Source of the DNA: an uncultured Gemmatimonadaceae bacterium
GTDB lineage: Bacteria > Gemmatimonadota > Gemmatimonadetes > Gemmatimonadales > Gemmatimonadaceae
NCBI GenBank assembly: GCA_963781585.1
Contig: CAWAGQ010000014.1
Coordinates: forward strand, 96,001 to 160,000
DNA length: 64,000 bases
Direction of reading: 5' to 3'
Part shown: piece after piece, positions 40,501-55,500 of the stretch
Layout of the letters: each line of letters opens with the position of its first letter
How positions within the stretch are numbered: the stretch's first letter is position 1
Position numbers: made by a program

Positions 40501-43500
40501 GAAGGGCACCGACAACACAAAGAACTGGCCGATGACGCTCGAGGGGAGCCCCTTGCCAACGAGGTCCCCGAAGTGCTTCGCGATGTAGTTGATCAGCAGG
40601 AGCCACGTGAGCGCGGAGAGCGAAAAGGTCAGCGGCGCCAGATGCTCTCGCAACACGTACCGGTGGATTATCTTCACGCTCGCGGTTGTCTCGCTGTGCG
40701 CTGGGGGAACTGGCGACGATCGGTGTCGTAGGAGGGGGGCACGTCGAGCCGTCCTGACGAGGCACGTATCCCCGGGAGTACCAGTTCCCCGGTTCGAAGG
40801 TCCGTGGAATATAAGGATTTGCCAGCGGCTCGGGTTCCCACCGGGCCCGCCGTCACCCGTCGCTGATACCCGTCCGCCGCCTTCCGGTGCGCGTCGCCCG
40901 GTTCGTCTCGGCCGCCCTGGCCGGTCTGTTCCTCCCCGCCGCTGCGCTGGGAGCGCAGCCCCCGCGGCGCGACAGCCTGCGGACCCGCCAAGCCGACACG
41001 ACCGCCACCCGGATTCCGAAGCCGGATACCACGAGTGCCGGAAGTCCGTCCGCAGGCGTGAGCGCGGCCTCCCAGCAGGACTCCGCGTTCTCGATGAAGC
41101 TCCTCGGTCGGCTGGAATTCCGGGGAGAGCGCACCAAGGACTACCTCTGCCTGTCCAACCAGGTCTTCAGCACATCGCTGCGCTGTCGCACGCACCTCAC
41201 TCCGGAGCTCGACTTCCAGTTCTCGCTCCTTTCCGCCGGAGCGGTCACCGACCGGGTGCACGTCGACGTCGACTACGACTCGCAGCGCGAGTTCGACGGC
41301 TCGAACAACATCTCCATCGCCTACAAGGGAAAGTCGGGCGAATTCCTGCAGGATGTCGAAGTGGGAAACGTCACCTTTGCGCCGCCCCCGTCGCGGTTCA
41401 TCACGTCCGGCATTCCCAGTGGCAACTACGGCGTGCTGGCCTCCGGCCAGGCGGGGAGCATGCGAATCAGCGCGATCGCCGCGCAGCAGAAGGGCAACGT
41501 GGTGCAGAACCAGGTATTCACCATCGGTGAGCGAATCGGCCAGCCGGTGGACCGGGACATCGAGGACTATCAGGTGGAGCCACGACGCTTCTTCTTCTCG
41601 GTCGACCCGGCGCTGTTCGGCTCGCGGTATCCGGGCATCGATATTCTCGACCCGAACCAGATGCGCTCTCTGGCCGCGTCGCTCCCCGACTCGCTGCGCC
41701 CGTCGCGGCTGTTTCTCTACCGGCTGCTGATCGGGGGCCAGCCGCCGAACCCGAACGGGCCCCGGTTCACGCTGCTGGACGACCCCGATTCGCGTCCGGG
41801 CCAGGTCTACGAACTCCTGCGGGAAGGGACCGACTACTACGTTGATCCATCGCTGCTCTGGTTCGCCCTGGTGCAACCGCTTGCGCTGCAGAACGAGCGC
41901 CTGGTGGTCGCGTATACGCTGCGCATCGGCGGGCGCGATACCACGATCGCGCGGCTGGGCGGCACCCCCGACCTGGCGTACACACCCAACCAGGCGCAGT
42001 ACGCGCATCTCGTCTGGGATCCACGCGTGTCGCCGGGCGACGCGGCGTTTCGTCGTGAGATCCGGTCGGTGTACCGGTTGGGCGGCGACGATGTGCGCCG
42101 CGAGACGGTGTCGCTGCGGATGACGGCCGGAACGGGCGCCGACCAGGAGAAGCCGCCCGGGGTGGCCACGACGTATCTGCAGATCTTTGGTCTGGCCCAG
42201 CGGACGAACTCGGCCGCGTTCGATGCCGGAAACCGCCTGTGGCCCCGGCCGCAGGATCCCAACGACCTGGTCAGCCCCACCGCCGACGCCGGTCGCATCC
42301 TGCACGACCTCTTCATCGTGTTCCCGTCGCTCGAGCCGTTTTCGGCCGGCGCGCTGGCTGCGCACCCGACCCTGGTGCCTAACGATACACTGTATCGCAC
42401 GCCTGACGAGTACCTCTATTCGCCGCAGCACCCGCAGTCGGTGTACCGGCTGCGGGTGGCCTATGAGGCGCGCGGCATCGCCGGGCCGGGCGCGGTCTCG
42501 CTCGGCTCCGGCCAGCTGCGCCCGGGCAGTGAGCGCCTCAGCCTCGACGGACGCACGCTGATTCGCGGCATCGACTACGACATCGACTACGATCTCGGCC
42601 GGGTGCAGCTGCTTACCGCCGATACCCTGAATCCGCGTCCGCAGCGCCTGGTGGTGCGGTACGAGGAGAATCCCCTGTTCACCAGCGTCCCCACGTCCAT
42701 CCTGGGGCTCTCCAGCCAGTGGACGCTTCCCTGGGGGAACGTCGCCTTCACGGCGCTTTCGCAGAGTCAGCGCACGACGTTCACGCGCCCCCCGCTGGGG
42801 TACGAGCCGCAGGGGTCGCTGATGGCCGGACTGACCGCGTCCCTGGGCTGGGGCCTGGGCGGCGTGTCGCGCAGTCTGGCCCACTGGCTGCCGCACGCCG
42901 ACAGCGCCGCGGCTTCGCGTCTGGACGTGCAGGCGGAGCTGGCGGTAAGCCAACCACGTCAGTCGGGATCGCAACAGGCATACCTCGCGTCGTTCGAGGG
43001 AGAAGGAGGGATCAACATCAACCTCCTCGCCAGCGGGTGGCTCTACAGCAGCCAGCCGGCGCTCGGCAGCCGGCTGGCCGCTCGCCTGGGCGCATCGACG
43101 TTCGATACGCTGCGCGCGGCGACCATGGCCTTTCAGAACTTCGGGACGGACGCCGATGGCGCCCCCGTCTCGTTTTCCCTGCCGCAGATCGATCCGCGCG
43201 TCGCCCTGGCCGGCGCGACCTTTCCCGGCCTCGAGCAGATTCTGTGGCTGACGCTGTATCCGCTGACGACCGGCGGGCTCTATGACGAGCAGACCGGCAC
43301 CTATCGATGGCAGGTCGGGCGTTCAGTCGCCGGACGCCGATGGCGCTCGGTGCGAACCCCGCTGGCGCCCGGCGGAAACGGCGTGGACCTCACCCAGGGC
43401 GAGCAGCTCGTCTTCTGGACGCTGGTCGACACGACATCCGCGCGCCTGCAGGAGAATCCGGTTCTGATCTTCGACTTCGGCGACGTTTCGGAGAACAGCG

Positions 43501-52500: not shown

Positions 52501-55500
52501 CGTCATCATGAGCGTAGCGGTCATCGCCATCACCGTCCTGCTCATCTTCGTGATTCCGGTGTTCGAGGGAATGTTCAGCAGCGTCGGCCTCGCGCTCCCG
52601 CTGCCGACCCGGGTGGTCATCGGCATGTCGCGGTTCCTCAAGGGATACTGGTTCGTCGTGGCCGGGGTCATCGCGGGCACCGTCTGGCTGCTGCGTCGCT
52701 ACTACCGCACGTCGAACGGCAAGCTGGCCATCGACCGGATGCTGCTGCGGATGCCGGTGTTGGGCGACGTGCTCCGCAAGAGCGCCGTCTCCCGGTTCAC
52801 GCGCACGCTTGGCACCCTGATCAGTTCCGGCGTGAGCATCCTGGACGGTCTCGAGATCACCGCCAAGACGGCCGGCAATCGCGTCATTCAGGACGCGATC
52901 ATGTCGTCCCGGGCGAGCATCGCCGGCGGCGACACCATCGCCGCACCCCTCCAGAAGTCCGCCGTCTTTCCGCCGATGGTCATTTCGATGATCGCCGTCG
53001 GTGAGCAGACGGGCGGTCTGGACGAGATGCTCACCAAGATCGCCGACTTCTATGACGAAGAGGTAGACGCCGCGGTGAGCGGCCTGCTCGCGCTGCTGGA
53101 ACCGTTGATGATCGTCTTCCTCGGCGTGGTGGTGGGCGGCATGGTGGTCGCCATGTATCTGCCGATCTTCGACATGATCAACGCGGTGCAGTAGACCGGC
53201 GCGACACGCGCCAGGTCGGTCAGCGGACTCCGGGTTGCTCCCGGTCCGCGAGAAAGGTCAGAACACGCACGGTTGCGCCGCTGCCTCCACCGGGCAGCGG
53301 CGCAGTGCTATTGTGGAAGTCCTCCCATGGTACGGATCACCCGCCATTCGGCGGGCGTGACCGGGGTGACCGACAACCGGCCGATCCGCAGGAGCGCCAT
53401 CTGGGCAAGCTCCCGCCGCTTCCGGATCTCGGGGAGCGACACGGCGCGTGGAAAGCGCTCCGCCGCCCGGATGTCCACCACGAACCAGATCGGCGCCGAT
53501 GGATCGGACCGCGGGTCGAAGTTCTCGTGCTTCGGGTCGAGAGCCGACGGATCCGGGATGGCCCTCGCGCACCACGTCGCACGTCCCGACGATTGCCGGC
53601 GGCGTCGCCATCGAGTGATAGAACAGCACACCGTCCCCGCGCTTCATGCCGTCCCGGAGAACGTTGCGCGCGGTGAAGTTGCGCACGCCGTCCCAGTGGG
53701 TGGTCCGGCCCGGGCCCGCCTCGAGATCGTCGAACGAGAACACCATGGGTTCCGACTTGACCAGCCAGTAGCGGCGTTCACCGGGCGACCGCGCTGCCAG
53801 TGCGGCTGCCCAGGTTCCCGAAGCCTCGGGCGCCGCGCTGCGCGTACCGCTCGGTTTCCCGCGTCTCGCCGCGCCTGATCCGCGCCCTTTCCTCACGCCC
53901 ATGCGCCCGCCCTCCTCGTCGCCATGGTCGCTGCCGTCGTCAACTGGAGTAGTACGCCGCGTTCTCGTCGATGTAGCCTTTGGTGAGATCGCACCCGTAG
54001 GCCGTCGCCGTCGCCGCGCCGACGCCTAACGCGACCTCGATGTCCACGGTCTCGCTGCCGAGCGCCGTCCGGACCGCGCTGTCGTCGAATTCGAGGCGCG
54101 CGCCGCCGCGGACCACCGGGAACCCGTTGATCCGGACGTCGGTCTGCCCGGGCACCACCACGCACTCGAAGCACTTGCCCACCGCCATCAGGATCCGTCC
54201 CACATTGGGGTCGGCGCCGTGCACCATCGTCTTCACGAGGGGCGAGTTCACCAGGGACTTGGCGACGCGTCGGGCGTCGTCGTCGCTGGCCGCCCCGCGC
54301 ACCGTCGCGCGCAGCAGGTGCGTTGCCCCCTCTCCATCCCGCGCGAGCACTTCGGCCATCCGCACGGAGCCGGCGATCAGGGCGTCCAGAAACGCTCCTG
54401 CGTCCACCGGCCCGGCCATGCCATTGGCCATGACCGCGCAGGTATCCGACGTGCTCGTATCGCTGTCGACCGAGAGCATGTTGAACGACACCCGTACCGC
54501 GCTGCGAAGCATGGTGTCGAGCGGCGACGCCTCGAGCGCGGCGTCGGTGAAGATGTAGACGAGCATGGTGGCCATGTTGGGCTCGACCATGCCGGAGCCC
54601 TTCGCCACCCACGAGATGGTCGCATCGCCCACTCCCAGCGACAGCGCCTTGGGACGGCTGTCGGTGGTCATGATGCCTTCTGCGCCGACCAATGGGTCGT
54701 CGCGCAATTCCCCCGCCATGCCGCGGATCCCGCGCTCGACGGTCTCGATCGGGAGGGGCACGCCGATCACGCCGGTCGAGCTCACCAGCACCCGGTCGGC
54801 GCTGGTCCCGATTTCGGCAGCGGCCGCGCGCGCCATCCGGCGGGCGTGCTCCAGCCCGGTGGTTCCGGTGGCGACGTTGCTGTACCTGCTGTTGGCGACA
54901 ATGCCGCGCAAGCGACCGCCGCGGATCGTAGTGCGACCGAGCACGATGGGTGCGCCTGGAAAGTGATTGCGCGTAAAGACCGCCGCCGCGGTCGCGTCCA
55001 CGTTGCTGACGAAGAGAGCCAGATCCTTCGCGGCGGGCTTGAGTCCGCAATTGCGGCTCGCGCACCGGAAGCCACCGGGGAATCGAGGCGTGTCGTGAAA
55101 GGACATGCGCGAAATTACCGTCCCTGGTGCCGGCCCCGCCATCCGCCGAACGCCTGGCGCCGCATCAGATGCTCCCGCCGGGCAAGGTGTCCGCTGTCCG
55201 GCGGGGCGACCCAGGCATGTCCCGGAGGCGGCAAAGACAGTTTGCACGACCGATGAATGGCGTGCGGCCGGGCAGCCGCCGTACGTTGCTTTCCAGAAAG
55301 TGCGCCCGCGACGAAGCGTCTGGTGGTCGGGGATAGAGTCGGGGGGAGAGGCGCTTCGTTGCGGGGCGCGCGGCGCAATGGGCACGGGATGCGCGATGAC
55401 GACTGACGTCTGGCTCAGCCGGTCTGCAGTCAGTCGCGCAGCCCGTGCCCAAAGCGTTTTCGCGCCTCGCGGTTTCAGCGGCGCGCAACAGGACGGCCGT

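Follow-up and report, generated by a model that had tools for sequence, protein, structure and literature searches.

A probable Gld-independent SprA translocon and its apparently old pilus-gene neighbours in an uncultured Gemmatimonadaceae bacterium

Gene order at the sprA locus

The window, which is the whole stretch of 64,000 nucleotides analysed here (contig CAWAGQ010000014.1, positions 96,001 to 160,000, of assembly GCA_963781585.1), comes from an uncultured Gemmatimonadaceae bacterium. In window coordinates, sprA and its neighbours are arranged as follows:

36141..37876, minus strand: MlaE-like and MlaD-like genes, extending the lptFG run (PF02405, PF02470)
37873..38967, minus strand: LptG-like permease (PF03739; best NCBIfam match TIGR04408, below cut-off)
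38971..40677, minus strand: LptF-like permease, divergent from sprA (PF03739)
40887..46913, plus strand: sprA, outer-membrane translocon of the SprA/Sov family, 2008 aa (TIGR04189, 6h3i/6h3j)
46933..47835, plus strand: glutaminyl cyclase-like M28-fold lipoprotein (QC; PF04389 in an open frame of 46927..47835, lipobox LSGC)
47982..48542, plus strand: ComEA-like protein with an N-terminal hydrophobic segment and a helix-hairpin-helix domain (HHH_3 over cut-off)
48625..50451, plus strand: PilB type IV-A pilus assembly ATPase with MshEN domain (TIGR02538, 709.7 over 675.65; start taken from the gene call)
50730..51887, plus strand: PilT retraction ATPase (TIGR01420, 487 over 319)
52001..53194, plus strand: PilC inner-membrane platform protein (T2SSF twice)

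The survey's finding had described a co-oriented run sprA-M28-comEA-pilB-pilT-pilC, and the open reading frames do lie in this order and at those window positions on the plus strand. For the ComEA-like gene both TIGR01259 and TIGR00426 remain below cut-off, and the top NCBIfam matches of PilC are PilC models that score under their cut-offs. The QC gene begins 19 nt past the sprA stop. A promoter and terminator scan was uninformative, with one promoter-like site (1.1 expected) and no terminator-like sites in the sprA-QC and QC-comEA gaps.

The gene order is conserved among relatives, as had been claimed. Of 80 close loci, 22 include the complete sprA end together with 8 kb or more of downstream sequence; in these, comEA and pilB follow sprA in 22/22, and pilT and pilC in 21/22. 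An automatic tally over 40 loci across the phylum, a few of them cut by contig ends, gave comEA in 29, pilT and pilC in 28 each, and pilB and M28 in 22 each. The most conserved neighbour is the divergent lptF/lptG pair (39/40), which the earlier description left out; lptF lies upstream of sprA in all 68 close loci with sufficient upstream DNA, and also at sprA in KSB1, Eisenbacteria and Ignavibacteria-type loci. The QC gene follows sprA in several FCB phyla. In family f10 comEA stays next to sprA while pilBTC are located elsewhere, and it adjoins sprA in some WOR-3 and Latescibacterota loci. Pil genes after sprA were seen in Gemmatimonadota loci only, among the FCB-phyla loci compared. The run probably combines an old block of envelope genes (lptFG, sprA, QC and comEA) with a pilB-pilT-pilC group that joined it within Gemmatimonadota.

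The M28-fold gene product had been called an M28 peptidase. The fold stands (PF04389), but the nearest relative is the P. gingivalis glutaminyl cyclase: the closest solved structures are the glutamine cyclotransferases 6qql and 7cje (E 3e-55), and the match to the aminopeptidase YwaD is far weaker (E 1e-11). Some PDB entries close to the protein carry the name aminopeptidase. According to a crude predictor, 86 of the 317 candidates have glutamine after the AxA motif of the signal peptide, compared with 2.7% in controls. The protein is, judged by sequence, a glutaminyl cyclase-like lipoprotein with that predicted activity. It shares with PgQC of the Bacteroidetes Q-rule the M28 fold, the lipobox and the glutamine enrichment after AxA, but its gene lies directly behind sprA, and the enrichment is lower than the Bacteroidetes average, given as 71% by SignalP (PMC5837995), a method not comparable with the crude predictor.

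SprA, its partners and its cargo

The 2008-residue product scores 560.3 bits against TIGR04189 (cut-off 200), which identifies it as a full-length family member. By sequence it matches F. johnsoniae SprA 6h3i (E 3.3e-18) as well as 6h3j. The protein was modelled with AlphaFold2 in two separate halves, with about 26 and about 12 long strands, where the barrel of the SprA/Sov family has 36 strands and opens laterally; the pLDDT is 84.5 for the C-terminal half and only 65.6 for the N-terminal half. SprA is the top Foldseek match of both half-models (E 2e-31 and 1e-41), and SprA chains occupy ranks 1 to 4 for each. The earlier description as a full-length SprA/Sov homologue is therefore confirmed by profile, sequence and fold. 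The N-terminal arm is shorter here than in all other aligned homologues. The reading frame is intact, and none of the sprA matches listed has an internal stop.

PorV and PorX homologues, also claimed before, were recovered. The PorV-family gene exceeds the NF033709 cut-off (99.7 over 90), falls far below that of the PorV equivalog model (36.5 against 250), and is the syntenic orthologue of the gene that follows porU in relatives; PF19572 gave no PorV match in this genome. PorX matches, at E 4e-134, a protein that exceeds the NF052313 cut-off. A Skp-like open reading frame behind bamA was seen by eye.

Across 151 Gemmatimonadota genomes (136 of the class Gemmatimonadetes and 15 of other classes, which as kin are not independent), SprA and the PorV family are concordant in 140: both occur in 115 and neither in 25, with SprA only in 5 and PorV only in 6. 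The era-linked PorV orthologue at E <= 1e-30 was not found in 36 sprA-positive genomes, 31 of which have weaker PorV-family matches only and 5 none. A DUF5683-like gene 3' of porV is present in 70 genomes, 69 of them sprA-positive (one weak match, 4e-6, excluded). Of the 41 genomes with a CTD cargo gene linked to smc, 40 are sprA-positive. The sole sprA-negative genome for both genes is G044, an assembly of 210 contigs.

PorU is missing. The gene is deleted here from the conserved order era-Trm112-porU-porV, and the profile gave no match elsewhere in the genome. Full-length PorU was found in 0/136 genomes of the class, where only CTD-end matches occur, compared with 14/15 over cut-off in other classes. 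Proteins of about 1320-1390 aa in relatives, considered as a diverged PorU near sprA because they match the end of the PorU model, proved to be CTD cargo; they sit in a TonB-receptor cassette and have no homologue in this genome.

Type A CTD proteins number exactly two in this genome (151 and 167 aa), in agreement with the earlier claim of two small stand-alone secreted proteins. Both carry signal peptides and little beyond these and the CTD. They match the CTD profile of relatives at E <= 6e-25 and lie below the TIGR04183 cut-off; PF18962 is found in 48-63% of the members among their Atlas neighbours. The accompanying claim that Por_Secre_tail is absent does not hold for the class, since it was matched in 49/136 class genomes; it was also matched in 15/15 genomes of other classes, the latter with 24-35+ scored matches. 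Most FlgD_ig matches lay mid-protein, in frames of about 1000-1250 aa, and were rejected as C-terminal CTDs. Pfam identifies the smc-linked cargo as an S8 subtilase with CTD in G065 and G064, and alignment does so in G044; among family relatives this cargo measures about 345 aa, and in the present genome 167 aa. About half of the sprA-negative genomes still carry the selB-linked stand-alone CTD protein (CTD match in 15/31), which therefore may not be a substrate.

Relation to the type IV pilus

Could SprA have been repurposed as a pore through the outer membrane that serves type IV pili or DNA uptake? In favour of this are the co-oriented run, retained in 21-22 of 22 close loci, the position of comEA beside sprA in f10 and in some WOR-3 and Latescibacterota loci, and a ComEC gene in the genome. 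Against it, a pilM-N-O-P-Q cluster elsewhere in the genome supplies its own PilQ, and because this secretin is present we reject SprA as its stand-in. The genome shares PilB, PilT, PilC, PilM, PilQ, ComEA-like and ComEC genes with the type IV-A pilus competence machinery, which has its own secretin and is present independently of SprA.

The two systems are lost separately. SprA was not found in 31/151 genomes, and inspection of the locus bore this out for only 13 of them. A PilB-type ATPase is kept in 31/31 sprA-negative genomes, and ComEC in 2/2 tested. In 13 of 19 loci fetched as the surroundings of the PilB match in such genomes, sprA is cleanly deleted with no remnant; these 13, which span 10 genera and 3 families, run from lptF/G over 41-296 bp (1453 bp in one case) to QC and then pilB-pilT-pilC. 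Conversely, G057 and G129, each a single contig and 100% complete, retain sprA without PilB, PilT, secretin or ComEC, with positive search controls. We consider a pilus or DNA-uptake pore highly improbable. The earlier reading of a SprA barrel tied to these processes gives way to the presence of PilQ, the two-way dissociation and the co-occurrence of SprA with the PorV family and CTD cargo.

A one-way, non-obligate dependence, in which the PilT/PilC retraction motor energises the translocon where the genes are linked, is compatible with sprA loss while pili are kept. The same linked order occurs in the CTD-rich, PorU-bearing families f11 and f12 (3/3 long-enough loci), and five f7 loci retain sprA-comEA-pilT-pilC though pilB is gone from the locus. 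However, G057, G129 and G109 retain sprA and PorV without PilT or secretin, the CTD-rich family f10 lacks pil genes at the locus (4/4 long loci), and the arrangement is confined to Gemmatimonadota among the FCB loci compared. This dependence appears quite unlikely. It is likewise unlikely that T9SSs outside Bacteroidia run on another energy chain that in Gemmatimonadota is PilT/PilC, with pilus-less lineages left with an idling SprA. The pilus genes beside sprA look like old neighbours rather than partners.

Search for a Gld motor

The earlier searches had reported no GldK/L/M/N motor and lacked controls; with the GldM and GldN controls now positive, that result is upheld. Profiles found GldM in 0/151 and GldN in 0/151 genomes, each with 5/5 Bacteroidota as positive control. 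In the genome itself, custom GldL/M/N profiles run unfiltered gave no GldL and nothing at E < 0.028, and no GldK was found, the sole FGE-sulfatase gene being EgtB-like and adjoining an EgtD-like gene. A topology screen for adjacent two-TM and one-TM genes returned three pairs, which matched neither the GldL nor the GldM profile. Across five other FCB genomes no shared motor-like gene was found near porU.

A conventional chain of GldL, GldM, GldK and GldN may have diverged past profile detection, as the profiles were built from Bacteroidota only and model organisms are strictly motor-dependent (PMC10994853, PMC12635249). Yet SprA and PorU stay readily detectable in the same genomes, and neither a GldK-like FGE-sulfatase gene nor a matching two-TM/one-TM pair turned up in this one. 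We regard such a hidden chain as unlikely.

Discussion

We conclude that the sprA product is probably a genuine T9SS translocon that works independently of Gld, FCB-ancestral, vertically inherited and reduced in the class Gemmatimonadetes. With the F. johnsoniae and P. gingivalis systems it shares the SprA fold and family, a PorV orthologue at the porU-porV locus, type A CTDs with signal peptides, and PorX. In contrast to these, GldK/L/M/N were not found here nor PorU in the class, the SprA N-terminal arm is shortened, two cargo proteins replace dozens, a DUF5683-like gene lies behind porV, and the gene neighbourhood is different.

By analogy with F. johnsoniae, we infer that SprA and PorV secrete CTD proteins in this lineage. 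These would be exported by Sec, the CTD would bind PorV loops within the SprA barrel, and the complex of PorV and cargo would leave SprA laterally to the cell surface. Lacking PorU, the CTD would be neither cleaved nor LPS-anchored, so that cargo would stay on PorV or be shed; the flux in this genome would be minimal, two proteins. For release of the complex, an unassisted, low-flux process has nearly an even chance, although a passive mechanism is disfavoured by the trapping of substrates in F. johnsoniae when the motor is missing (PMC10994853). A generic proton-driven motor of the ExbBD/TolQR-TonB type is possible but doubtful as the agent of release, a Gld-like motor beyond profile detection would be a rather unlikely one, and the pilus motor an unlikelier one still.

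The system might also be vestigial, SprA being kept temporarily or as a passive pore that exports nothing that matters. The deletion of PorU, a cargo that shrank from about 750 aa to 345 and then 167 aa, the shortened N-terminal arm, the long branch leading into the class and the 31 genomes in which sprA was not found, including 1/3 of genus g3, are in line with this. On the other hand, the 2008-residue frame is intact, and sprA loss is nested and correlated with loss of PorV, the DUF5683-like gene and cargo, suggesting that all of them worked together until they were lost together. An outright vestige thus seems improbable, and our best reading is a T9SS in decay, with PorU deleted and two tiny cargo proteins.

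The other classes of the phylum have SprA, PorU, PorV and 24-35+ CTD proteins, with GldM and GldN not found. Among FCB genomes with SprA, mostly MAGs of unreported completeness, GldM was found in 0/30 of non-Bacteroidia type, 29 of which have PorU, versus 7/8 of Bacteroidia type. In a quick SprA tree with midpoint root the GldM-bearing clade is nested, and a clade uniting Gemmatimonadetes and Bacteroidia SprA is rejected (p-AU 0.001). The occurrence of SprA, PorU, PorV and CTDs without GldM in many FCB lineages, together with the nested GldM clade, points to an older translocon that acquired the motor later. We lean towards SprA-PorV-PorU export being older than the Gld motor and running on some non-Gld energy source. 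A recent proposal places the origin of the T9SS inside the gliding machinery; the distribution speaks against it.

A 2013 survey of Bacteroidetes reportedly noted Rhodothermus and Salinibacter as having sprA without gldK-N. Our literature search, in which coverage of subscription journals was thin, returned no description of such a Gld-less SprA system. A review considers T9SSs possible in other FCB phyla too, Gemmatimonadetes among them (PMC11285876); BLAST hints exist for Chlorobi, Fibrobacteres and Ignavibacteriae (PMC5837995), and CTD signals have been proposed for Fibrobacter (PMC6851124). The passages concerned list no components and do not mention a missing motor.

A GldKLMN-type motor is thought to be essential for the T9SS, and here pore and carrier are retained without it. 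How SprA cargo is released without Gld thereby becomes a testable question, for which cultured Gemmatimonadetes are suitable, their systems being pared down to a single carrier and one or two substrates.

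SprA and its gene neighbourhood

The survey's finding described six co-oriented genes headed by a SprA homologue, and open reading frames together with profile matches in the window bear this out:

40887-46913, + strand: sprA
46933-47835, + strand: M28/glutaminyl cyclase-like gene
up to 53194, + strand: comEA-like gene, pilB, pilT and pilC, in that order

The 2008-residue protein scores 560 bits with TIGR04189 (cut-off 200) and its sequence aligns with F. johnsoniae SprA at an E-value of 3.3e-18. Solved SprA chains are the top Foldseek matches of AlphaFold2 models of residues 66-1100 (pLDDT 65.6, E 1e-41) and 1090-2008 (pLDDT 84.5, E 2e-31). 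Its N-terminal arm, which by position we take to be the SkpA-binding region in F. johnsoniae, is the shortest among 49 aligned sequences (106 residues vs. at least 125, with longest-ORF starts). The source genome is Gemmatimonadaceae-like, with Gemmatimonadota titles on nearly all of the best 80 related loci. Within the phylum, SprA exceeds the TIGR04189 cut-off in 120 of 151 genomes; two of the genomes counted in the tallies over this set, G053 and G093, are unpublished, and neither alone carries any conclusion.

The six-gene run had also been said to be kept, and among close relatives it is, with pilB in 22/22 and pilT and pilC each in 21/22 loci with enough DNA. The most constant neighbour of sprA is nevertheless the divergent lptF-lptG pair, found in all 68 close loci that extend far enough upstream and in 39 of 40 phylum-wide loci, whereas pilB occurs in 22 of the latter. 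Among the loci of other FCB phyla (54 of 80 examined), lptFG, the M28 gene or comEA often flank sprA, and pil genes lie 3' of sprA only in Gemmatimonadota. Spacing is tight only between sprA and the M28 gene (19 nt; 82-278 nt elsewhere in the run). At window 32669-35983 lies a large barrel of the outer membrane that includes a carboxypeptidase-regulatory-like domain; in relatives it is often conserved upstream of the lptFG-mlaED run. In family f7 (L053-L056, L060), comEA-pilT and a shortened pilC (~345 aa) are kept behind sprA and pilB is gone from the locus. Ignavibacteria-type loci (L442-L458, L460, L495) carry a PorX-like gene directly 3' of sprA; L495 and L460 have ExbB-like and TonB-like genes a few genes downstream, and L466 and L468 a TonB-like gene after sprA-gcvH.

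The M28 gene is nearest to the glutaminyl cyclase of P. gingivalis (E 3e-55). By a crude predictor, glutamine is about tenfold enriched after signal-peptide AxA motifs in the window's genome (86/317 vs. 2.7%), a partial Q-rule. The cyclase-like gene remains where sprA is deleted, and so the link is not obligate. Such a gene also lies directly behind sprA in loci of Marinimicrobia, KSB1, Eisenbacteria, WOR-3 and Stahlbacteria.

Pili and DNA uptake

The proposed tie of SprA to pili or DNA uptake does not hold, since the genome has its own PilQ secretin and since sprA and the pilus genes are lost separately. The secretin lies in a pilM-N-O-P-Q cluster, and ComEC is present too. Of 19 loci retrieved from sprA-negative genomes by way of their PilB match, 13 (from 10 genera in 3 families) have lptFG right beside the cyclase gene, then pilB-pilT-pilC, with no sprA remnant found; one of the other six stopped at a contig end and five were without lptFG. 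All 31 sprA-negative genomes retain a PilB-type ATPase. Conversely, G057 and G129 (single contigs, 100% complete) retain sprA in intact form together with PorV and a CTD protein, and PilB, PilT, secretin and ComEC were not found in either, with positive controls detected. There is thus no functional tie, and the pilus link is one of neighbourhood; we judge, rather than measure, release of cargo by the pilus motor to be very improbable.

In L215 (G021) the lptFG pair and the cyclase gene share a strand, and this locus was therefore rearranged besides losing sprA. A Tad/Flp-type pilus cluster with a second secretin occurs elsewhere in the window's genome (contig C11, L170:5993-15564). In family f10 (L232-L241) a GAF-MshEN-T2SSE ATPase lies ~10 kb or less from a cluster of large CTD proteins, probably also as a mere neighbour, with housekeeping genes between.

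Motor, carrier and cargo

The absence of a motor had been claimed without a control and now stands with one: GldM and GldN are found in 0/151 genomes and in 5/5 Bacteroidota controls. In the window's genome, unfiltered custom GldL, GldM and GldN profiles yielded no E-value below 0.028; the sole GldK-like match is an EgtB-like gene. The GldM/GldN absence covers 15 genomes of other classes, each with 24-35 scored CTD matches and with PorU, which exceeds the cut-off in 14 and is divided between two contigs in the remaining one. Among 38 further FCB genomes with SprA (most are MAGs with no completeness reported, and three are single chromosomes), GldM occurs in 0/30 of non-Bacteroidia type vs. 7/8 of Bacteroidia type; PorU is present in 29 of the 30, three of which have Bacteroidota-type titles and an Ignavibacteria-type sprA neighbourhood. 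Release by a Gld-like motor diverged beyond recognition is improbable in our judgement, which is not a measurement.

sprA and PorV-family genes are concordant in 140/151 genomes, but in 36 sprA-positive genomes the era-linked PorV has no strong match, which counts against pairing SprA with PorV. The PorV locus reads era, Trm112-like, porV, DUF5683-like; in families f10 and f12 porU follows the Trm112-like gene at this same place, and therefore porU was deleted in place in the window's genome. The DUF5683-like gene (L166:9480-10139; C4:524479-525138) occurs in 70 genomes, 69 sprA-positive, nearly matches the smc-linked cargo in presence (39/41) and is a candidate for an unrecognised T9SS component.

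CTD proteins number exactly two here. The smc-linked gene (41 genomes, 40 sprA-positive) encodes a subtilase with CTD in several Gemmatimonadales; in family relatives its product is Ig-like and ~345 aa long, and here it has 167 aa. A stand-alone signal peptide-CTD protein near selB/recO (L242:7318-7773; C4:432317-432772) is widespread in the class and retained in some sprA-less genomes. A CTD match remains in 15/31 sprA-negative genomes, which counts against reading these proteins as SprA cargo. Seven relatives (L192-L196, L207, L208) carry a cassette, absent from the window's genome, in which a large TonB-receptor-like gene is joined by a PorV-family gene and by one for a CTD protein of 1320-1390 aa that belongs to no known family; in some a weakly GWxTD-like gene comes next. 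The cassette looks like cargo plus a dedicated carrier, and in five genomes its distance from sprA is 13-20 kb.

History and assignment

In trees of 49 SprA sequences (1286 columns), those from Gemmatimonadota genomes of the compared set group in a single clade whose internal order follows class and family; the Bacteroidia clade sits nested next to Ignavibacteria and Kryptonia. A constraint joining Gemmatimonadetes with Bacteroidia was rejected (p-AU 0.001; 28 sequences, 800 columns). Given midpoint rooting and an uneven base composition, the order of events is only inferred.

PMC4793230 confines T9SS to Bacteroidetes and does not display Gemmatimonadetes. Published work already hints at T9SS parts in Gemmatimonadetes (PMC11285876); the comparison also took in PMC5837995, PMC12635249, PMC11205867, PMC12618676 and PMC6851124, and term searches of PMC8542988 and PMC5445135 returned nothing relevant. 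The literature searches made turned up no description of a motor-less, PorU-less form, and supplementary component tables could already record the missing motor.

The analysis yields a parts list, losses and co-occurrence. By analogy with F. johnsoniae (PMC10994853), PorV would capture the CTD inside SprA and lateral exit would follow; without PorU, cargo would remain uncleaved. Since F. johnsoniae traps its substrates when the motor is missing (same source), release needs another explanation. By judgement, not measurement, unassisted low-flux release is quite possible, if short of an even chance, and release by a generic ExbBD/TonB-type motor is rather unlikely. The canonical Bacteroidota T9SS has a motor, ring and sortase, whereas all three were absent from this genome in the searches made, and the system therefore falls outside it. 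By analogy, the module appears to work like a T9SS translocon with its carrier.
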